IMG/VR virus record: IMGVR_UViG_3300029955_000001
Source of the DNA: a virus
Taxonomy: Duplodnaviria > Caudoviricetes
Length of the DNA stretch: 64,000 nt
Direction: 5' to 3' (one strand)
Both the position numbers and the translations under genes were made by a program. This document shows, piece after piece, positions 7,786-50,547 of the stretch (the first letter of the stretch is position 1; the number at the start of each line of letters is the position of its first letter). The notes under the pieces are model-generated. The model was not told where the DNA came from. It saw only the letters and a list, made by a program, of their open reading frames with translations, and did no database searches.

Positions 7786-8207
7786 ATTATTTTTTAAATT
7801 CTGGGACATCGACAGTATTTGCTGGTACAACTGTGCCGACATACGACTCTACTAAAAAAGTTTGGGTTACTGATGTTGGTAGTTTTGTTGATGTAACAGG
7901 GAAAAATTATTCGATTGGTTCGAATGATTTAACTCCATTACCAACACCAGTAACAGTAACACCTGCGCAATTTTTAGCATTGTGGACACCTGCTGAATTA
8001 GCAGCAATTCAAACTCTAGAAGCAACTAGTCCTACAGTGAAAAATTTATTTACAGTAATTGCTACAGGTGCTGCAAATATCGACATGTCTCAGTTGTCTG
8101 TTAAAGCAGCTATAAGAAAAACTTTATTCTTATTGCCTGTCGGAATTATTACTGCAGAAAATCAGATTGCTCGTTTCGCAAAGATTCTGTCAGGAACACC
8201 AGCTTAA
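7782..8207 (+). CDS. Putative tail-fibre accessory/assembly protein
   Basis: ATGA overlap with the upstream gene; VTPAQFLALWTPAE motif typical of small tail-associated proteins. Confidence 0.5.
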   Translation: MNYFLNSGTSTVFAGTTVPTYDSTKKVWVTDVGSFVDVTGKNYSIGSNDLTPLPTPVTVTPAQFLALWTPAELAAIQTLEATSPTVKNLFTVIATGAANIDMSQLSVKAAIRKTLFLLPVGIITAENQIARFAKILSGTPA

Positions 8208-8214
8208 AGAGAAG

Positions 8215-8242
8215 ACTAATACCCAGTTACTTGGGTATTAGT
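8215..8242 (+). terminator. Intrinsic terminator-like hairpin
   Basis: actaataccca/tgggtattagt stem followed by T-rich sequence. Confidence 0.6.
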
Positions 8243-8275
8243 TTTATTCACTTGTAAATACAGGTAGGAAAATAA

Positions 8276-11200
8276 ATGTCAACACCACTTGTTCTTAAAT
8301 ATCCAATTGATCCGACTGGAACTAATCCTGCTAATTTAGTACAGGGTGAAGTTCAGACGTTGATCCCAAGACCAATACGTGCGGCAGCAACAGATTACGG
8401 TGCATTTTATTCTGCTTCCTTGATTGTTACCGACACAGCAAACAATACTATTTTAACTTCTGCTCAGTATTACCCAGCAGAAATGTACAAAATTCCAACG
8501 GAGATGTACGGTAAGGAAGTATGTGCAATTATCATTATCACTGATCCAACAGTTAGTAATTCAATATCGTTACAATACCAAGCAGTTGGGGGCATTTTTA
8601 GCACAAGTACTGAAGCTATAGTGCAGATGTTAAATGCAGCTCAATTAGATAACAGACCAATTACTTGGCCTAACATTGAACAGAAACCAACTGAATTTGT
8701 TCCTACTCTGCACACACACAGCACAGATGATTTCTATGGAATGGAATATGTCACGTTTGCACTGGAGCGTGTACGGCAAGCTATTTTACAAGGTGATGAT
8801 GTATCACATGATCAAATTTATGCGTATATTGATAAGAACATCGCTGCTGTATCAGCTGCTCAAGTATCCGCTATTAACGCAGCAATGGCTTTGCATTTAG
8901 CAGCAGCTAATCCGCATCCGCAGTATGTATTGATCGCTGATGAAAATATATATCCTCTTGTAAGAACGCCTACGAATGAAGTCCCTGTCAGTGGGGCGAT
9001 TGGTGTTAACCCCGAGCTAACGTTGACGGGTAATGAATACTATTCGTTATACGGAGTGTCCCAAGGCGCGTCTGAGTTTCGTTTATCGGTTAATGCTGGA
9101 TGTGTTTCTCCTTTTATCTTTGACGCTGTATTAGGGGCTGTAAACACTTATAATTATTCAGGGGTTCTTTCTTCTGAAACTGTTTATTACTGGCAAGTTC
9201 GGTATCAAGATTCAGAAGGCGTGTGGTCTGCTTGGTCTACTGTTACATCGTTTACAAGTGCTGTTATTGGTGTAAATACACCAATAATTAATTCTATAAC
9301 AAATGGTGCGGTAGGTGTAAGCTTAACACCTATTTTAACAAATAGTGCTTTCTCATCAACTGGCATTGTCGATACTCAGACTTCGAGTGTTTTCCAAATA
9401 TGGACTAACAATTCAGCAATCGGTGTTCCTGTTTGGTCTGATACAGTGAACAGTGGTAATTTAAATTCTGTTAGTGTGTCTGGCGGGACGTTGCAAATAA
9501 CAACCACTTATTACGCTAGATCACAACAAGTGGGGGCGTTGCTAGGTGCGTCTAATTGGTCGTCGTGGGTAGCTTTTACAACGGCTTCTACGGGAATTAC
9601 AACGCCGTCGATAATAACCCCCGCAAATGACGCGATAGATGTGTCTATCACGCCAACTATCACAGCTTCGGCCTTTACCCCTTTTGGTGGAACGGATACG
9701 CAAGCTTCGACTAATTGGGAAATATGGACATTGGGAAGTACGTTAACTCCTGTGGTTCGAACGTTTACAGCAAGTGGTACGTTTACGCCACCTAGTGACG
9801 TTATGTCCGTGACTAGTGTTTCTGGATATGGCGCGGCAGCTGTAGCAAATACAACAACACCGGTTACCTATACGTCAGGGGCTGCTTCTACTGCATTTGG
9901 TTTCGCATTCCCAGGCGGTGTAAATGCTACTGCTCCTGTTACTACAACAGAAAATACAGTCGCTGTTATTCCTGGCTATTCGTATCCTATTATAGTGCCA
10001 ACTGGTGGTATTGTTACAATAAACTATTCTACTATTGTTCCTGCGTTAGTATGGTCATCTGAAAATAATACAACTAACCATACATCGATTACACTGCCGG
10101 TAAATAGTATTGTTGCCGATACATTATATCAGATTCGTGTTCAATATACTGGTGTGCTGCACGGTTCATCTGCGTGGTCTGCATGGAGTTATTTTACTGC
10201 TGGTTCACAGGGTGTAAACACTCCGTCTATTACATCGCCAGTTATTGATTCGACAGGTGTGTCTACATCGCCTACATTATTGGCTAGTGCGTTTTCTGTA
10301 TTTGGCGGAGCTGACACGCAAGCATCAGCTAGTTGGGAAATATGGACTGCTGGCACCGCTGTACCGCATACGCAAGCATTTACTGCGAATGGTACTTGGA
10401 CAGCTCCTACTGGTGTGTCTAATTTAACTAGTATTGTTGGCCATGGCGCAGCATCTACGCCAATTAGCGGTATTATTGGTTATGGCCCGTCTTACTATCA
10501 GATAGGCTATAATAGTCTTATTGGTGGTTACAACTATACTTCTACACCAACTATTACACAAACTAGTGGCAGCATTCAAAGCGGCGCTGGTGGTGGAGTT
10601 ACTATACTCCCATTATATTCATATACTTCACCAATCGCGGTTGTGCACGGAACAGTGCCGGATGGAACTTACACCGCGATTGGGACTAACATTAGTGCCA
10701 ATGACGTAACTTCGCCAGTAATGACCGCCGTTGTATCTGGAAATATCGTTACATCAGTAACAGTAACGCCTGGGCTTACAATAGAGGGATCTCAAGAAGA
10801 TGCATTTGCACTGTGGAATATAACTTTTGACATAGGTAATTACTTACAGGGGTTCGCAAGCGCTAATGTAAATACTGGAACTTATTACGCAACTGCAACA
10901 ATTGCTCAAGGCGTAGCAAACAGCGCAACAGCTATTACGTATCAGGTATCTGGGGGCGGAGGCAGTACATTTACGATTAGTTCTACACCTGTACTTACAG
11001 CTGGAAATGCTGAATACGGCACTGTTGGCTATACCGCTGGCGCCAACGCTACTGCTGTCGGTAATACATTTCTTGGTGCCACCGGTTCTGCTGCCCCGGT
11101 TGTCGTTACAGATACAAACGTTGCTGTTGTTCCCGGAACAAGTTATCCTATTGTTGTTCCTACTGGCGCTAGTGTAACAATCAATTGGAGTACAGGTACT

Positions 11201-13965: not shown

Positions 13966-14256
13966 ATGACTACACCTTTTCCGATTAAACGAAATGTTCT
14001 GCGTATGATTCATTGGTTGATTATAGCAGCATTGTTTTATTTTGTTGCTTATTGCTTATCAATCGACGAAGAGCTTCGTCAGCTTTCTACAATCTCTTGG
14101 AAACTCGGCAATGTAACTGTAGGCGGTTATGTGGGCTATTGGCTAGATAGGCATTTGTTCCAAACAAGGATAGATGACACTAGCCCGCCACTGTTACAGA
14201 TCAGGAGAGCCGTGATTGTGGCAGCTAGTATCTTTGCTGTATCGACAGGATTGTAA
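13966..14256 (+). CDS. Putative holin (2-3 transmembrane segments)
   Basis: Start reassigned to ATG 13966 after AAGGA; hydrophobic helices; GYVGYWLDR.LF motif; directly upstream of a transglycosylase. Confidence 0.75.
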   Translation: MTTPFPIKRNVLRMIHWLIIAALFYFVAYCLSIDEELRQLSTISWKLGNVTVGGYVGYWLDRHLFQTRIDDTSPPLLQIRRAVIVAASIFAVSTGL

Positions 14257-14257
14257 A

Positions 14258-14965
14258 ATGAAACGCATCCTCTTATGTTTAGATAAGTGGGCGACTATTA
14301 TTTACGGGATTTTAATAGCTATTGTTTTATTGTTCGTTGTTGCGAATAGCGTATCTGCTGCTATCATCAATACACATAAACCAATAGTTAAACAATCAGT
14401 CCCACGGACCCCTGTAATTATGCTGCAATATAGAGCTGCGTTAACAAGAGAAGCACAGTTTGTTTACGGCATAAACGCACCTATCCCTATGTTCGCTGGT
14501 CAGATATGGCAAGAGTCCGGCGGTAAAGCAAATGCAAAGGCATGGGATTTAGGAATGGGGTTAGGACAATTCGAACCGGGCACAGCAAAAGAAATAGTGA
14601 AGTTGTATCCTGAATTAGGACCATCTGACCCTTTCAATCCTGTATGGTCAATACGGGCTTTGGTAAGATATGATGATTGGATATACAAGCGCGTTAAAGG
14701 CGTTAATGCATGTGAGGTGTGGGGTGGTAGCTTAGATGGCTACAACGCAGGTCTGGGGTATGTTCAGAAAGCTCAGAGAGCATCTCCTGATCCTACTGTC
14801 TGGTTTACTAAGACCGAATATGTGCCTACAGGCCAAACAGCCAAGAATAAAGAATACAGTCGTGTCTACCCACGAATTATTCTTTTTAAACACCAAGCTA
14901 TGTTTTCTACTTGGGGAGCATTAACGTGTTTACCGTATGTTCCAGTTGGTAAAAATTCTTTTTAA
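14258..14965 (+). CDS. Lytic transglycosylase (SLT family) endolysin with N-terminal TM/SAR segment
   Basis: Catalytic QES motif, GLGQF and YNAG motifs; hydrophobic N-terminus; start taken at ATG 14258. Confidence 0.88.
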   Translation: MKRILLCLDKWATIIYGILIAIVLLFVVANSVSAAIINTHKPIVKQSVPRTPVIMLQYRAALTREAQFVYGINAPIPMFAGQIWQESGGKANAKAWDLGMGLGQFEPGTAKEIVKLYPELGPSDPFNPVWSIRALVRYDDWIYKRVKGVNACEVWGGSLDGYNAGLGYVQKAQRASPDPTVWFTKTEYVPTGQTAKNKEYSRVYPRIILFKHQAMFSTWGALTCLPYVPVGKNSF

Positions 14966-14998
14966 TTTTTATGTTGGTTTGAATAAACAAAAAAAATA

Positions 14999-15037
14999 GG
15001 CATAAAGTCAGAGAGAAAACTCTCTGACTTTATGCCG
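14999..15037. terminator. Bidirectional hairpin: T-tract on minus strand, TATGCCG on plus strand
   Basis: 17-bp stem ggcataaagtcagagag/ctctctgactttatgcc preceded by an A-run. Confidence 0.85.
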
Positions 15038-15049
15038 TACAGTTAACTT

Positions 15050-15460
15050 CTAATCTCTCAGTTTTAAACCTTTATCAGCTAACGCTCTCTTTATTTGCTC
15101 AACGTCAACGTTGGATATGCGAGGCAGCTCTTTCAATAGCGATTCAGTTAGTAATGCTACATCGCCCACTGTATTAATACCAGATTTAATTAAATTATCT
15201 TCTAGTAAACGCGGTAGCCATAACATCACAACTGATTGGGTTAGTAGTGGTGTATTGATATTTTGTTCTGCTGTTACTTTTGCATTCCTATTAAAAAGAG
15301 ATTCGGCTTCTTCAAGATGCTTCCATGATTCTCTCATATGCCTTAAAACAATTTCTTCCCTTTCAATAGCAGTTGTTGATATTGATTCACCAGGGGTTAA
15401 TTGCGCCATTACTTGGTAATACGCTGCCTTAGCTAATAGTACAGCTATTTTATCATTCAT
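15050..15460 (-). CDS. Protein with C-terminal RNA polymerase alpha-CTD-like domain
   Basis: SVVMLWLPRLLEDNLIKSGINTVGDVALLTESLLKELP...EQIKRALADKGLKL aligns by eye to the E. coli alpha-CTD [38 protein letters not shown]...EIKDVLASRGLSL. Confidence 0.8.
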   Translation of the reverse strand: MNDKIAVLLAKAAYYQVMAQLTPGESISTTAIEREEIVLRHMRESWKHLEEAESLFNRNAKVTAEQNINTPLLTQSVVMLWLPRLLEDNLIKSGINTVGDVALLTESLLKELPRISNVDVEQIKRALADKGLKLRD

Positions 15461-15665
15461 GATTATCCTCTTTCTCTTTTTGTGTCTTATTTAATTTATC
15501 AAGTAACGCACTAGCATTACGTGTTAAAAGTTCTTCTGGTGTAGGTGGTTTATCAGTTAGAAATGTATCGTCGTAATATAGTTCTTTTCTACGAAATGGT
15601 AAATATAAAAATAGAAGTAATAAAATAACAAAAACAACAATCAAAAAGATCGTAAACGTATCCAA
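15453..15665 (-). CDS. Small membrane protein
   Basis: N-terminal hydrophobic helix. Confidence 0.65.
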   Translation of the reverse strand: MDTFTIFLIVVFVILLLLFLYLPFRRKELYYDDTFLTDKPPTPEELLTRNASALLDKLNKTQKEKEDNHE

Positions 15666-15667
15666 TT

Positions 15668-16000
15668 TTAAATACCCCTTTTTGCAATAACAATATAAGC
15701 CACCACGTCGTTTGCCTTCGGTTCCTTACCGTCCCATCTCCATCGGAAGTAATGAGCACTCAGACACTTCTCATCACCGTCTCTACGCTTAATCAATACA
15801 CGCGTATTCTTACTCACTGGTGAATCGCCCATTCCTAACCAGCATAACCATTCCCTATCTCCTTTTTTAACTTTCTTATGTTGAACAGGTATTAATAATT
15901 CTTTCAACGATGTCATCTCTTCCACCGTTATACCACAGCTCTCTAATTTTTTAATTAACGCAGTGGCTGCTGTTCTAATAAGCTCTGCTCTTGTTACCAC
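15668..16000 (-). CDS. Hypothetical phage protein
   Basis: AAGGAG RBS with GTG start; W.G.G..PV...RRDG...W...DVVAY motif common in phage proteins. Confidence 0.7.
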   Translation of the reverse strand: MVTRAELIRTAATALIKKLESCGITVEEMTSLKELLIPVQHKKVKKGDREWLCWLGMGDSPVSKNTRVLIKRRDGDEKCLSAHYFRWRWDGKEPKANDVVAYIVIAKRGI

Positions 16001-16091
16001 AATACTCTCCTTTTAAATAAAGTATAAAAAATACATATCTGAAAAATGTATCTATGTATTTTTCTACTCTATCAATAATTACTATGTAACA

Positions 16092-16135
16092 CTACGCTAC
16101 TACTGGAACCTTCCCTAATCCCAGTAGTAGCGTAG
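16092..16135. terminator. 15-bp perfect hairpin downstream of the second alpha-CTD gene
   Basis: ctacgctactactgg/ccagtagtagcgtag. Confidence 0.6.
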
Positions 16136-16143
16136 ATTCTCAT

Positions 16144-16581
16144 CTATGCCGGAAATGAATCAGGTCTTTTCCAATTAGGTAACTTCATCCCTAGCTTCAA
16201 ATTGTGTTCTGCTAGTGCTTTAGTAATTGTTAAAACATAAAGTGAATCCTCGCTTGTTGTATTTAATAACTTAGCCAGTGAATGTTTAGTCATCTGAACT
16301 AATTCACCAATGTAACTTACGTTATTAATAAACAATTTATTTTCTGTTTCTTTTGGCAATCCCAACACATTAACAGATAGACTGTAGTAACATGGTTCAG
16401 CTTTAGGAACACCCATCCAATCCAAGTATTTATCAGCAGCATTGAATAATTGTTCTGCTAAATCAAACTGCGCGTATGCTAAAACAGTCTCTTTACGTTC
16501 GTAAAGAATTCTACCTTTTTCAAAATGATATTTCGCTCTATCTACTAGCAATTGAAAACGTGCATTCATTTCCATTCTCAT
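16144..16581 (-). CDS. Second protein with C-terminal alpha-CTD-like domain
   Basis: SVNVLGLP..TENKL....VSYIGELVQMT...ALAEHNLKLGMKLPNW matches the alpha-CTD, including its LGMRLENW tail. Confidence 0.82.
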   Translation of the reverse strand: MRMEMNARFQLLVDRAKYHFEKGRILYERKETVLAYAQFDLAEQLFNAADKYLDWMGVPKAEPCYYSLSVNVLGLPKETENKLFINNVSYIGELVQMTKHSLAKLLNTTSEDSLYVLTITKALAEHNLKLGMKLPNWKRPDSFPA

Positions 16582-16617
16582 TTATTTAAAAAACAATTAC
16601 ACTATAACTATATCAAA

Positions 16618-16638
16618 GTAATTATATATGTCTGAATT
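16618..16638 (-). promoter_or_regulatory. Putative early (virion RNAP) promoter
   Basis: Minus-strand TTCAGACATATATAATTAC, a member of the repeated motif also seen at 48043 and 50531. Confidence 0.6.
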
Positions 16639-16650
16639 ATTTTGTATTAA

Positions 16651-16684
16651 CGGCATAATAGCTAGGTAGTTATACCTAGCTAAA
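16651..16684 (-). terminator. Hairpin + TATGCCG (minus strand)
   Basis: tagctaggta/tacctagcta stem flanked by CGGCATA on the + strand. Confidence 0.6.
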
Positions 16685-16946
16685 TATAAAGTAAAATACA
16701 AAGTCAAAAGACAAGAAGTGAGATATTGCTTTAAAGCAATATCTAGGTAATAGACACAACTGGACACCTAGGGCGCAGCCTCCGTCTGACGCAGACCGGA
16801 TGGTCACGATACATCCCTGCTCGTGACAAATGATACTCCTTGCCTGTAAAAAAAAAATATATTTTATTTCATTACACAACAAAACGGAATATAGCCTCTC
16901 TATACCATCCAAGTAAGTGGACAGTACAAAGAGACTAGATATTATT

Positions 16947-17261
16947 TTAAACGTCTTGTGGGGTCGGTAAACGTGGTACACGGCGACGTTCTTTATACTT
17001 CACAGTCACCTTCTCTATCTCTACACTAGGTCCAGCGATACGCATCAATCTCCAGTCATCACTGGTAGATATATCCACCAGACCATGTGTTTCAAACGCA
17101 CTCGTTCGTATTCGCTCTCGATATTGGCAAAACCATACTACTCTACCATCTTCTGTGGGTATTTGTTTAATAACCTCACAAATCTTATCCTGATTTTCCT
17201 TATAGACAGGATGAACCAACATAGCGATATCCCCTACTCCCACATTCACGTTATTCTCCAA
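16947..17261 (-). CDS. Hypothetical protein
   Basis: 104-aa ORF abutting the upstream gene in the operon. Confidence 0.7.
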   Translation of the reverse strand: MENNVNVGVGDIAMLVHPVYKENQDKICEVIKQIPTEDGRVVWFCQYRERIRTSAFETHGLVDISTSDDWRLMRIAGPSVEIEKVTVKYKERRRVPRLPTPQDV

Positions 17262-17606
17262 TTAAAGTTTATACGATGGATCAAAATCAGGTAACTCAAT
17301 TAGCTTACCTGCTAATTCATGTTCACAATCTGAAAGGTATTGTATTTTACCATCTGTAACAATACAGTGACACTGAGAGCGTTCTACTTTAGGGCCATCT
17401 GGATTATCCCAATCCACAGGTTCAGAATACGTTTCATGAAAAGAAGGAGTAAATGTAGGAAGAAAAGGATTATAGTTGAACGTCCAGTGAGGGCCTTTTG
17501 TAAAAACTGTTTTTAACAGCATTACGTGAGCGCACTGACATCCAGGGCACCAATACGCAATACAACCACCTTCCAATAATCTTAATTTACTACCGATCAT
17601 GTTCAT
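17262..17606 (-). CDS. DUF6527-like Cys/His metal-binding protein
   Basis: CPGC..H, W.FN....PTF.PS and CH..VTDG.IQYLSDC.H.LAG motifs. Confidence 0.75.
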   Translation of the reverse strand: MNMIGSKLRLLEGGCIAYWCPGCQCAHVMLLKTVFTKGPHWTFNYNPFLPTFTPSFHETYSEPVDWDNPDGPKVERSQCHCIVTDGKIQYLSDCEHELAGKLIELPDFDPSYKL

Positions 17607-18265
17607 TATTTTTTACCTAGATAGGTATTCTTTATTCGGAATATATTCTCGTACAGTTCTGTAACTTTCTTTTCTTCAGCTTCAGTACGTTCGCCGAATG
17701 GAGAAACGATTAAATCCGTTATTTCAATAGGAAAGTTAGGGATAGTAGCTTCTCTGCTAGAAACTTCCAAATCTATTTTTATCCATGGAGAATAATGGTT
17801 CTTTCCATCTTCATCAGTCTTAATAATAAAGACATCGAACTCCCAAGTTAAATCCGTACCAGGAGCAGGGAAGAAATAACGATCTTTTTTCATACCGCTA
17901 TCTGATAGTATTTTAAACTGAACAAAGTTTTGTTCTGTTGTAGGAATGCTAATCTCAAACCTATCCCCATCTGCGTTAGCGGTTGTTTTCGTAGTCAATA
18001 CATATTCAGGTAGCGAATCACCTTTTATAGTCTTACGAATACGGATAGTTCCTTTTCCAGCATTCTTTTCAGATTTAGGAATCTTAAGTTCCCACTGTTC
18101 TTGTTGCTCGAAATTCTCAGCTTTCTTTAGATCGTCAAAGTTAACTAAACGACCATAGTACACATGTTCTATTTCTTTATTAACTTTACCATCAGCAACT
18201 TCTTCTAACGACGGTGCGTTAGTCTTTATGCTTTCTAGTGCTTGTTTTAAAAAACTAGTTCTCAT
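17606..18265 (-). CDS. CYTH-like (triphosphate tunnel) domain protein
   Basis: EIEH motif, RIRK, TTK, K.RY and W..D/ID.E elements typical of the CYTH fold. Confidence 0.65.
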   Translation of the reverse strand: MRTSFLKQALESIKTNAPSLEEVADGKVNKEIEHVYYGRLVNFDDLKKAENFEQQEQWELKIPKSEKNAGKGTIRIRKTIKGDSLPEYVLTTKTTANADGDRFEISIPTTEQNFVQFKILSDSGMKKDRYFFPAPGTDLTWEFDVFIIKTDEDGKNHYSPWIKIDLEVSSREATIPNFPIEITDLIVSPFGERTEAEEKKVTELYENIFRIKNTYLGKK

Positions 18266-18273
18266 GATTGTTC

Positions 18274-18591
18274 CTATTCTGGTTTTATGAAAAAGTAAAG
18301 AAAAGGAAACAGAAATAATAGAAGATTAAATTCTTTTCTCTTTTTAATTGGTTTCGGAATAACACCATAAACACGTCTTTCAATTCCGTCTATCGGAATA
18401 GCTTTAAACGCTTGCACAGCCTCGCACATTGCCCAGTAGACTTTCCCTGAAGCTACCCAGCCTTTCCCTGAATGCATCTCTTCAATAGTGATTCCGAATG
18501 GATGTATAGTCCTGCATCTATCTTTACATTCTTTTGAACAGACTTCATTTTCGCAAAGCATTGTTATTTCCTTACTTATCTGGAGGATCAA
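18274..18591 (-). CDS. Hypothetical Cys-containing protein with C-terminal hydrophobic segment
   Basis: ORF in operon; C-terminal LLLFLFPFLYFF. Confidence 0.5.
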   Translation of the reverse strand: MILQISKEITMLCENEVCSKECKDRCRTIHPFGITIEEMHSGKGWVASGKVYWAMCEAVQAFKAIPIDGIERRVYGVIPKPIKKRKEFNLLLFLFPFLYFFIKPE

Positions 18592-19012
18592 GAATTACTT
18601 TTACTATTTCACTTACTGTTTCAACTACATCTTTAGTGACAGCAATGAGATCGCTCTTATCTGTAGCTTTAATAAAGGCGTAAGCGAACAATACCACAAT
18701 CGCTGCGGTTGTTACTAGTGCCACGGTCACAAACGTTTTAATAAGATAATTACGTAAACGTCTATCTTCTAATTCTAAAATAGAAAATTGATCTTCTTTA
18801 CGATTACCTTTAAACTTATTGTAAAATGTTTCCTGATCAGCTGGGGATAGTTTCTCAAATGCTTTATGAATATCTTCAATCTTAGCATTTTTGTTAATTA
18901 CTACGAGATCGTTATCAGGACTACTAGCAATATCATTGTAATGAGTAACAACATCTTCAATATTAGCGTGTGGCCGTGTGGTGCGTCTTCTTTCGTCTTT
19001 ATTAAAAAACAT
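18572..19012 (-). CDS. Single-TM membrane protein next to spanins (possible holin-like)
   Basis: TM segment FVTVALVTTAAIVVLFAYAFI; directly follows the o-spanin. Confidence 0.5.
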   Translation of the reverse strand: MFFNKDERRRTTRPHANIEDVVTHYNDIASSPDNDLVVINKNAKIEDIHKAFEKLSPADQETFYNKFKGNRKEDQFSILELEDRRLRNYLIKTFVTVALVTTAAIVVLFAYAFIKATDKSDLIAVTKDVVETVSEIVKVILDPPDK

Positions 19013-29102: not shown

Positions 29103-30980
29103 TTACATGATCAACTTCAACATATAAGCATCGTCTCCAATACTACCTTTCGTTGCTTCCAGAATGCGACCGTCTTTTGTTTTTAACAAGTGGCGACGAT
29201 ACGCAACACCATCTTTCGTTGTTTGTGCTTCTGTATCAGCAAACATACTTACCAGCAAGCTATGCAGAATAGGATTTCCATCTGGCCCTTCTTTCTTTAC
29301 AAGACTAGCAATGTCGTCTTGAAGTTTTATTTCTAACTCGTCATACAAACATTGAACAAAAGTCAAACTATATTTACCGCCAATATAAACAACATCAGCA
29401 ACACACCGACCTTCTTTGGTTTCGCCATCCATATGACTTAGCGTAACAGTGTAAGCTTCATCAAGATCTAACATTTTTAAAGTAGACGTTATTTGAGACT
29501 GTTGATCTTTCAGGAAAGCTTCTGCAATCCTATCGCCAAATTTAGTCTTAATAATAACAATAACGCCTTCTATATCTTCGATGAAATCGTCTATCGTCAA
29601 TCTAGGAATGCAGACTTTCTGTTTCAATAAACGATTGATAAGTTCCGTTATCTCTCGCTTACACAAGTTAAGTAGTTCAGGATGAACCTCATCTTTGAAA
29701 GCAATGATCTTATCCCGCACGCTGATAAATGTTTTTGAATTACTAATATTGCGGATAAATTCTCGATCACTTTGTGAGCAAATAACAGGTTTATAGATAA
29801 ACGCATAACAACGATAAATCGCCGGAATAACTATCTTGTCGCCAAACAAAGATGCATCGTATCGGCACAGACCAGCAGTTAACCATGCTGCTTCTTCTGA
29901 AATTTCAAGAAGTATCTTTTGATTAATTTTAGTTGTTACTACAGGCATTTCTTTTTCTTCTTCAGCAATTGCAATTACTTCATTATTTACTTCTTGGACA
30001 CCGACATGAATACGTTGCATTGCGCTTGCAGCAGCACTTATTCCTAAACCAGTTGGTACTATTCCAGAACTGTTATCAGTGGAATGACTTGCGTAATCCA
30101 TGTTGACATCCTTTTTATTATTAATGAAAGGTGTAATAACACCATTGACATTGGCGATTTGCAGTTCGTATAAATTTGGGTTATACGCTGGGAGATACCA
30201 ATGTTGCTTATTAGGAACCCACAGAACTTTCGAAGCAGTCTTACTTTGTTCTTGTGTTGCTACTGTGTTATTAATAGGTTCGTATACTCTAGCGATGTCG
30301 GTATTTTCAGCTGTTCTTGCCCCACCATAAACACGATTTTCAGTTGAGCCAAAAATCTGTGCCATCTGTATAGGAGGTCGCTGATTGCCACCGCCACCAT
30401 TTACAGACACATGACCTCCTTGTCGATTTGAACTGGGAAATACCGGCGCGCCATTGCCATAGTTATTAACTTGTTGGTTATTGTAACCGCCAATATTGAA
30501 ACCAGGCTTTGGTCGTATTTCTGCTAGCAATGCGTCAAGGTTATTAATAACGCGTTGTATAGCTTCGGCACTATTTGGGTTAACCATACCTTGCAACGGT
30601 TGGAATGTACGAATATTGTCCGCGCAGGCCATCTCGACCATCTTTGGAATAATATCAGCAATAGCTTGCTCCAAACTGGGATATCCGTTATTTCGCATAT
30701 GGAAGTCGATCACTTCCATTGTGAGTAAAACAAGTGTTTCATAATCTTTATTATAGAAACCATTCTGAGCATACTGATTAAACATGAACATTCGAAGCTT
30801 GTTCATACCAGCTGCGTTCTGAATTTCTATCGCAATAGCTGATGCAACCAATGGCAACATTTGCATTAGTTCTTGAGGATATTGTGGGCACTGTGGTACA
30901 TAAGGTGGGTTACCAAAAACCAATGGCATAGGCTGCACTGTCATTTGATCTGGATTAAAAGGCAACGGCGTGTTGTACAT
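29103..30980 (-). CDS. Conserved phiKZ-like hypothetical protein
   Basis: 625 aa; position downstream of the RNAP subunit is typical of the family. Confidence 0.7.
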   Translation of the reverse strand: MYNTPLPFNPDQMTVQPMPLVFGNPPYVPQCPQYPQELMQMLPLVASAIAIEIQNAAGMNKLRMFMFNQYAQNGFYNKDYETLVLLTMEVIDFHMRNNGYPSLEQAIADIIPKMVEMACADNIRTFQPLQGMVNPNSAEAIQRVINNLDALLAEIRPKPGFNIGGYNNQQVNNYGNGAPVFPSSNRQGGHVSVNGGGGNQRPPIQMAQIFGSTENRVYGGARTAENTDIARVYEPINNTVATQEQSKTASKVLWVPNKQHWYLPAYNPNLYELQIANVNGVITPFINNKKDVNMDYASHSTDNSSGIVPTGLGISAAASAMQRIHVGVQEVNNEVIAIAEEEKEMPVVTTKINQKILLEISEEAAWLTAGLCRYDASLFGDKIVIPAIYRCYAFIYKPVICSQSDREFIRNISNSKTFISVRDKIIAFKDEVHPELLNLCKREITELINRLLKQKVCIPRLTIDDFIEDIEGVIVIIKTKFGDRIAEAFLKDQQSQITSTLKMLDLDEAYTVTLSHMDGETKEGRCVADVVYIGGKYSLTFVQCLYDELEIKLQDDIASLVKKEGPDGNPILHSLLVSMFADTEAQTTKDGVAYRRHLLKTKDGRILEATKGSIGDDAYMLKLIM

Positions 30981-48017: not shown

Positions 48018-48059
48018 GAGATATATACTCAAACTCACCGAAGTTATATATGTCTGAAA
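48018..48059 (-). promoter_or_regulatory. Tandem early-type promoters
   Basis: Minus-strand TTTCAGACATATATAAC (48043-48059) and TTTGAGTATATATCTC (about 48018-48033). Confidence 0.6.
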
Positions 48060-50530: not shown

Positions 50531-50547
50531 GTAATATATGTCTGAAA
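50531..50547 (-). promoter_or_regulatory. Putative early promoter
   Basis: Minus-strand TTTCAGACATATATTAC with a phiKZ-like TATATTAC core. Confidence 0.65.

Follow-up and report, generated by a model that had tools for sequence, protein, structure and literature searches.

A diverged pair of phage proteins with alpha-CTD-like domains that have lost the canonical DNA-contact residues, in a phiKZ-like jumbo phage from peat

The region between positions 15050 and 16581 of the viral record IMGVR_UViG_3300029955_000001 was analysed within a 64,000-nucleotide (nt) stretch of DNA (the whole stretch is called the window below), whose source is a phiKZ-like jumbo phage from peat. This region contains four minus-strand open reading frames (ORFs), namely gene B, an ORF of 110 amino acids (aa), an ORF of 70 aa and gene A. 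Proteins A and B each consist of an N-terminal two-helix hairpin and a C-terminal domain related to the C-terminal domain of the alpha subunit of bacterial RNA polymerase (alpha-CTD). The coding features are the following:

16144..16581, minus strand: gene B, 145 aa; the probable true start is the ATG at 16569, giving 141 aa
16159..16401, minus strand: coding region for the alpha-CTD-like domain of B (residues 61-141)
15668..16000, minus strand: 110-aa ORF, opening the unit whose last gene is A; match to phrog_9174 (E 3.6e-5)
15453..15665, minus strand: 70-aa ORF with a hydrophobic N-terminal helix, called as a gene in several contigs
15050..15460, minus strand: gene A, 136 aa; N-terminal helical part and an alpha-CTD-like domain at about residues 72-136, without the C-terminal NW tail

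The last 8 nt of the 70-aa ORF are shared with the start of gene A, and the 110-aa ORF has weak relatives in Pantoea phages. The true start of B is probably its fifth codon (16569), because relatives begin MN(D/A)(K/Q), with A, P0018, P0068 and P0013 all starting MN, and because gene callers give 141 aa; this 141-aa form is recorded in 22 contigs.

Their sequences mark A and B as paralogs over the whole length (26% identity from end to end, E 3e-7). The fold of B was modelled with AlphaFold2 (AF2). A single-sequence model was poor, with a predicted local distance difference test (pLDDT) score of 48, and was replaced by an alignment-based model (pLDDT 90.8), in which helices at residues 2-28 and 32-55 precede a compact helical domain at 61-141. 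The alignment behind this model consists mostly of canonical alpha-CTDs, and the evidence from folding concerns B only, as A was not folded. The N-terminal 60 residues have no Pfam match, so no RNA_pol_L or RNA_pol_A_bac assembly domain was found there. In a structure search the hairpin of B matched generic antiparallel helical hairpins only, and an ESM Atlas feature search with the N-terminal part of A gave no usable match. The coiled-coil relatives described below make dimerisation through this hairpin plausible. The original prediction had given the two proteins unrelated helical N-terminal parts; these are unrelated to the N-terminal domain of alpha (alpha-NTD), but they are homologous to each other within the full-length match.

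The relationship of the C-terminal domains to alpha-CTD was visible at the level of sequence families. RNA_pol_A_CTD (PF03118) was the best Pfam family for both proteins, at 18.3 bits for A and 16.9 bits for B, which is under the curated gathering cut-off of 23.8; HHH_5 matched A only, and more weakly than RNA_pol_A_CTD (16.9 bits, E 0.009). Among the sequences of the PDB, B matched only alpha chains of RNA polymerase (RNAP), the best of them being the E. coli alpha-CTD 3k4g (E 1.3e-4, B residues 69-138). A profile made from A and B retrieved 348 proteins from 1.84 billion representatives, and PF03118 was above the cut-off in all 10 of the retrieved proteins that were scanned. A further profile, which comprised 457 alpha-CTD-like domains and from which A and B were left out, gave scores of 62.7 bits for B and 55.7 bits for A, a result that is partly circular as these domains had been recruited by the A and B profile. 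The family alignment matched RNAP alpha only in the PDB, with E values down to 7.6e-40.

The model of B agrees with this assignment. All of its top 50 PDB matches in Foldseek were RNAP alpha, and the template modelling (TM) scores by target for isolated E. coli alpha-CTDs (3k4g, 3n97, 3n4m) ranged from 0.80 to 0.87 at a root-mean-square deviation (rmsd) of 1.9-2.9 Å. VIA-align, which is independent of Foldseek, aligned the C-terminal domain of B with residues 248-324 of E. coli alpha at Z 12.6 (rmsd 1.9 Å, 76 residues, 33% identity), followed by the alpha-CTDs of B. subtilis (Z 10.7) and H. pylori (Z 8.9), and the best non-alpha helix-hairpin-helix (HhH) structure was the N-terminal domain of RAD51C (Z 8.1). 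Therefore, a generic HhH reading is not favoured, because solved alpha-CTDs outrank generic HhH domains; the structure search, for which the original prediction had named that outcome as the alternative, decided for alpha. The model firmly supports a genuine alpha-CTD fold for the C-terminal domain of B, and profile comparison firmly supports homology to alpha-CTD for that of A. The claim that both ORFs end in such a domain is in this way borne out by sequence and profile and, for B, by fold.

Residues were mapped through HMMER alignments of A and B, using the established E. coli alpha numbering and the 265, 261 and 287 determinants. The positions of the 265 determinant correspond as follows:

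R265 of E. coli alpha: E78 in B, L85 in A
N268 of E. coli alpha: N81 in B, D88 in A
C269 of E. coli alpha: K82 in B, N89 in A
G296 of E. coli alpha: T109 in B, S116 in A
K298 of E. coli alpha: E111 in B, V118 in A
S299 of E. coli alpha: D112 in B, D119 in A

The sole residue of this determinant that is kept is N268, in B. Moreover, the second hairpin of B contains a 3-residue insertion after the S299 equivalent. The core residues L262, L270, G279, T285 and L289 are retained in both proteins, and B additionally retains a YIGELVQ segment and an LGMKLPNW tail; A stops at LKLRD. The original prediction, made by eye, had placed Leu in one protein and Glu in the other at the R265 equivalent, with the hydrophobic core kept and the LGM.L.NW tail preserved in one of the two, and the alignments confirmed it on each of these points. 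In the same alignment, R265 is present in 53% of the 457 related domains and G296 in 65%, and 11 of the 13 other single-domain proteins shorter than 200 aa keep R265. Over the 12 positions of the former DNA-binding face (265-269, 271, 291, 294 and 296-299), the net charge is -2 in B and -3 in A, against a family mode of +2; a value of -2 or lower occurs in only 22 of the 457 domains. Loss of the canonical DNA-contact set in both A and B is thus firmly supported by the alignments, and it is most likely that neither protein binds UP-like DNA. The reading which we put forward, as possible but somewhat short of probable, is that A and B are early accessory proteins that would act on host transcription via protein mimicry and not via DNA binding.

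Relatives of the two proteins were found mainly in metagenomes. P0018 (145 aa), one of the 10 scanned proteins, aligns with A from end to end at 35% identity (E 8e-21) and matches PF03118 at 53.4 bits, above the cut-off. P0088 is B-like (31% identity, E 3e-10) and also lacks R265 and G296. P0018, P0109, P0066, P0147 and P0140 keep R265, N268 and G296. Small metagenomic proteins in which an N-terminal coiled coil or helices are joined to an alpha-CTD, often with an NWxRP tail, are represented by P0095, P0109, P0066, P0140 and P0147; P0013 has two alpha-CTDs and adjoins another alpha-CTD gene, so that multiple copies recur. A tree of A, B and their relatives had no starred branch, and shared and parallel losses of the DNA face are not separable on it. 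No match was obtained with tblastn of A and B against 50,697 GenBank phage records, IMG/VR yielded no useful relative when scanned with A, B and P0109, and a scan of genome contigs with B gave none. A word search of 5.8 billion proteins returned only the proteins of the window phage itself. The neighbouring genes of P0018 and P0088 include none shared with the window.

When P0018 and P0109 were used in tblastn against GenBank phages, the hits were mostly bacterial rpoA in mislabelled or contaminated records and were rejected. Such 'phage' records with bacterial rpoA, probably due to contamination or mislabelling, include Salmonella phage S.Kent 1-2-1, Acinetobacter phage MD-2021a and Salmonella whole-genome-sequencing contigs. 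Ruegeria phage vB_RpoS-V16 has a weak alpha-CTD-like match at 10405-10581 (E 7e-3), in a gene annotated as a helix-turn-helix (HTH) domain protein or pyrophosphatase, which is possibly a fused alpha-CTD in a cultured phage. The metagenomic proteins P0003, P0004, P0010 and P0041 are large and carry up to 13 tandem alpha-CTD-like repeats, many of them without R265 or G296. On an 87-kb cellular contig (L004), positions 8001-8465 encode a 154-aa coiled-coil protein with a canonical alpha-CTD; the gene lies between two genes of TrmB-family regulators and near the genes for ribosomal protein S15 and the CCA-adding enzyme.

The remaining contact surfaces of alpha-CTD bear on the question of which partners such proteins could engage. 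The 261 determinant (D259 and E261), which contacts sigma region 4, is lost in both proteins, with V72 and G74 in B and M and W in A. In the 287 determinant, which contacts activating region 1 (AR1) of CRP, B keeps T285, L289, G315, K in place of R317, and L318, and carries the changes E286K, V287H, E288S and L290A; A is without the whole G315-L318 tail. Schweimer et al. 2011 reportedly found that the basic face of alpha-CTD also binds NusA-AR2. The original prediction had proposed CRP/FNR-type activators, NusA and ribosome coupling as partners. These are not favoured, the 261 determinant being lost, the 287 determinant mostly changed and the basic face acidified; specific partners of this kind are therefore doubtful, because the residues with which E. 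coli alpha contacts sigma, CRP and NusA are mostly not kept.

An acidified face might, conversely, be directed at alpha-CTD itself. NusA-AR2, too, is an (HhH)2 domain, and on alpha-CTD it occupies the site for UP elements. This acidic repeat binds alpha-CTD with a dissociation constant (Kd) below 5 uM (PMC4937328), which provides a precedent for A and B being acidified (HhH)2 domains, NusA-AR2-like or DNA-mimicking, that would dock on the basic face of the host alpha-CTD or of another basic DNA-binding protein and block initiation dependent on UP elements or activators. The inversion of the face charge in both paralogs, relative to the family mode, speaks for this explanation. However, no NusA-AR chain was among the top structural matches in Foldseek or VIA-align, and the whole domain has a net charge of 0 and is not strongly acidic. 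We consider this explanation unlikely.

Residual DNA binding through shifted residues is improbable as well. In that case A and B would be small dimeric proteins, either regulators or of nucleoid type, that bind AT-rich DNA of the phage or the host as canonical family members do, with contacts made, for instance, by the basic residue at position 264 (K77 in B and R84 in A). N268 is kept in B, and the relatives with R265, N268 and G296 (P0018, P0109, P0066, P0147 and P0140) look binding-competent. Nevertheless, the glycine of the second hairpin is lost in both proteins, this hairpin is interrupted by the insertion in B, residues at the K298 and S299 equivalents are acidic, and the charge of the face is negative.

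The phage in which these genes reside was identified by its virion and polymerase genes. Its major head protein is 58.6% identical to that of Burkholderia phage FLC9 and 46% identical to those of Ralstonia phages RP12 and RP31; it also encodes phiKZ internal head protein domains, a gp128-like virion protein and a homolog of phiKZ gp123, a subunit of the non-virion RNA polymerase (nvRNAP), in the window (E 7e-79). These genes confirm the earlier view that this is a phiKZ-like phage with its own RNAP. Its longest recorded contig is of 287,693 bp, and near-identical copies of the phage are found in more than 20 contigs from peat and permafrost metagenomes. The ORFs of A and B are intact and unchanged in more than 20 metagenome contigs from many samples, and all recovered copies of the locus are 99.8-100% identical. 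Contigs from RNA libraries (4 studies) span parts of both A and B, a weak hint of transcription for which carry-over of DNA is possible.

The A-B cluster was absent from FLC9, RP12, FLC1-1B and RTH11, the four closest cultured jumbo phages searched, when these were examined with the Pfam model and the A/B family profile, and the syntenic block of FLC9 is without the A-B insert. Therefore, A and B are accessory genes. This distribution bears on a further explanation, in which the two proteins would be accessory factors of the phage's own multisubunit RNAPs and would offer an alpha-CTD-like contact point to phage regulators. The RNAPs of jumbo phages are without alpha subunits (PMC7598289), and an nvRNAP subunit gene is present in the window. 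However, the genes are missing from the four relatives, which share the virion gene set and presumably the RNAP system too. A and B are moreover not adjacent to RNAP genes, and solved phiKZ nvRNAP entries match the gp123 homolog only. We regard a role in phage transcription as distinctly unlikely.

The cluster contains sequence elements by which it can be divided into two units:

16622..16636, minus strand: promoter-like 15-mer TTCAGACATATATAA, 40-55 nt upstream of gene B, with the 13-mer core at 16624-16636
16031..16043, minus strand: second motif copy TTCAGATATGTAT, 31 nt upstream of the 110-aa ORF
16092..16135, minus strand: perfect 19-bp hairpin just after gene B, without a T-run, separating the two units
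14999..15036, minus strand: intrinsic-terminator-like hairpin (17 pairs) with a T-run behind it, at the end of the unit, after gene A

The 13-nt motif TTCAGAYATRTAT has 5 matches in the window where 0.72 are expected, and none of 100 shuffles reaches 5. Exact copies of the 15-mer number 3 (at 16622, 48044 and 50532) against 0.62 expected, and each of them lies on the minus strand in a gap that precedes a cluster of small ORFs. The copies at 48044-48058 and 50532-50546 (minus strand, TTCAGACATATATWA) are exact over 15 nt and precede other clusters of this kind. The 15-nt motif is probably the early-promoter element of this phage, and it fits the conserved AT-rich motifs described upstream of early operons in jumbo phages with their own RNAPs (PMC7598289). 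What stands of the 'early-type promoter' of the original prediction is this repeated promoter-like motif, whereas its early timing is what we infer from the likeness. The hairpin at 16092..16135 folds as RNA at -32.4 kcal/mol (z -6.9), with none of 200 shuffles equally stable, and is possibly a terminator or a stability element. An Rfam scan of 14000-19000 gave only a sub-threshold chance match on the terminator hairpin.

The genes look maintained, as the core is conserved, both are intact in more than 20 contigs, and each unit has its own motif together with a hairpin or terminator. The weakest explanation, according to which A and B arose by duplication of a captured alpha-CTD gene and are now drifting, with hardly any function left or none, could draw on the lost DNA-contact residues, the missing C-terminal tail of A and the lack of close homologs beyond the same phage in large databases (the word search of 5.8 billion proteins), but it is very unlikely given two intact ORFs whose hydrophobic core is conserved, a fold modelled with confidence (for B), a promoter-like motif for each unit, sequences unchanged in more than 20 contigs from many samples, and the full architecture in both of two paralogs that are only 26% identical.

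Several further features surround the cluster. The gap of about 365 nt upstream of gene B contains several hairpins (16651-16950, minus strand), among them a perfect palindrome of 24 nt (16721-16744) and a stem of 20 pairs (16892-16937). No contig covers 16747-16960 in four RNA-library runs, uncovered stretches being evidence neither way. Upstream of the cluster, in the same minus-strand run, a 114-aa ORF at 17262-17606 (minus strand) matches phrog_3362 (E 1.3e-29) and has a precomputed match to Pfam BubE (PF20137). At 29103-30980 (minus strand) a 625-aa protein is encoded, whose N-terminus (residues 2-171) matches PDB 9rp3, 'Gp316/JADA' (E 1.1e-5).

Protein mimicry directed at host transcription could proceed in the following way. 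A and B would be made early as accessory proteins, each built from a two-helix N-terminal module that is specific to the family and a folded copy of alpha-CTD. Their former DNA face is acidic; instead of binding DNA, they would make protein-protein contacts in the host cytoplasm, and, as alpha-CTD look-alikes, they may engage a host factor that normally touches the RNA polymerase alpha-CTD, or the alpha-CTD itself. Host transcription, and not that of the phage, would be disturbed in this case, while the phage relies on its own polymerases. The idea of decoys, proposed in the original prediction, keeps its basis in genuine alpha-CTD homologs with replaced DNA-contact residues in a phage with its own RNAP, but the residues do not favour the named partners CRP and NusA.

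A number of observations weigh against this reading. Of the 457 alpha-CTD-like domains, 96, mostly in tandem-repeat array proteins, are also without R/K265 and G296; proteins thus frequently employ the alpha-CTD fold with no canonical DNA face, and its presence need not mean a link to RNA polymerase. The basic residue at 264 in both proteins might partly rescue DNA contact. Most of what E. coli alpha uses to contact sigma region 4 (261 determinant) and CRP (287 determinant) has been lost, which does not point to mimicry of these contacts; all the contact determinants used here are those of E. coli alpha. Canonical alpha-CTDs made up most of the alignment that shaped the AF2 model of B. Finally, the near-identity of all recovered copies gives no measure of purifying selection. 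A more specific form of the same idea is doubtful: the charge-inverted 'pseudo-alpha' pair of a nucleus-forming-type phage would bind the host alpha-CTD or the regulators that depend on it, and would shut down transcription dependent on UP elements or activators, including inducible defence or stress responses.

The nearest well-known counterpart of A and B is the alpha-CTD of bacterial RpoA (about residues 249-329; PF03118; PDB 3K4G, 1LB2, 3N97 and 1Z3E), which B resembles in fold and hydrophobic core. B also shares with it N268, the YIGxLVQ segment and the LGMxLxNW tail typical of the proteobacterial alphas matched in the PDB. Unlike the domain in RpoA, A and B are not joined to the alpha-NTD assembly domain, and they differ from it by the replaced R265, G296, K298 and S299, the lost 261 and mostly changed 287 determinants, the insertion in B and the missing tail in A. 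Free-standing phage proteins with an alpha-CTD domain, listed in BFVD/UniProt as 'RNA polymerase, alpha subunit, C-terminal' (A0A6J5MNY7, A0A6J5QDR9), have about 110-240 aa and are like A and B in this respect; further examples come from Rhodococcus phage Finch (A0A2P1JY10) and Mycobacterium phage Mithril (A0A5Q2WLP1). These proteins were the best viral structural matches, at weak levels (E 3e-3 or worse, 14-25% identity). A and B belong to the same type, being small phage proteins in which a non-alpha N-terminal module is joined to a single alpha-CTD domain. In contrast to the other phage alpha-CTD proteins, they form a diverged pair, their DNA face is inverted, and the jumbo phage that encodes them is phiKZ-like and has RNAPs of its own; the metagenomic relatives P0018 and P0109, unlike A and B, keep the canonical residues.

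The small cellular proteins with a coiled coil and an alpha-CTD, such as P0140 from an 87-kb bacterial contig, have the same length and architecture (N-terminal helices, linker and alpha-CTD) and an NWxRP tail. An ESM Atlas cluster of 136-aa alpha-CTD proteins is likewise bacterial, with Verrucomicrobiota as the commonest phylum. The small cellular proteins differ from A and B by their cellular context, with ribosomal protein S15 and the CCA-adding enzyme nearby, and by keeping R265 and G296. Phage proteins that act on alpha are known from other systems: T4 Alt and ModA ADP-ribosylate alpha R265. Alpha is cleaved by Rac of phiKMV-like phages (PMC7552054). Rac and Alt/ModA are early phage functions aimed at alpha or alpha-CTD, by which host transcription is shut down or redirected; they are enzymes that modify alpha, whereas A and B are copies of the domain without a catalytic domain. 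A literature search found no paper on phage-encoded alpha-CTD homologs, and the pair described here is a DNA-face-inverted, duplicated jumbo-phage form of the known but unstudied free-standing alpha-CTD proteins of phages.

The alpha-CTD is a hub on bacterial RNA polymerase for UP elements, class I and II activators, NusA and several phage regulators, and phages are known to modify or cleave alpha. The A and B pair is a natural separation-of-function variant of this domain, which retains the fold but not the DNA face. As the phage transcribes with its own enzymes, the pair offers a clean system for studying the effect of a free alpha-CTD on the cell and the host partner that it captures. It is also a possible compact tool to block activator-dependent transcription. 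If the partner were an activator of defence or stress responses, A and B would represent a new class of host-takeover or anti-defence factor, and, if the pseudo-alpha reading were true, this would be the first phage takeover by mimicry of a host RNA polymerase domain.

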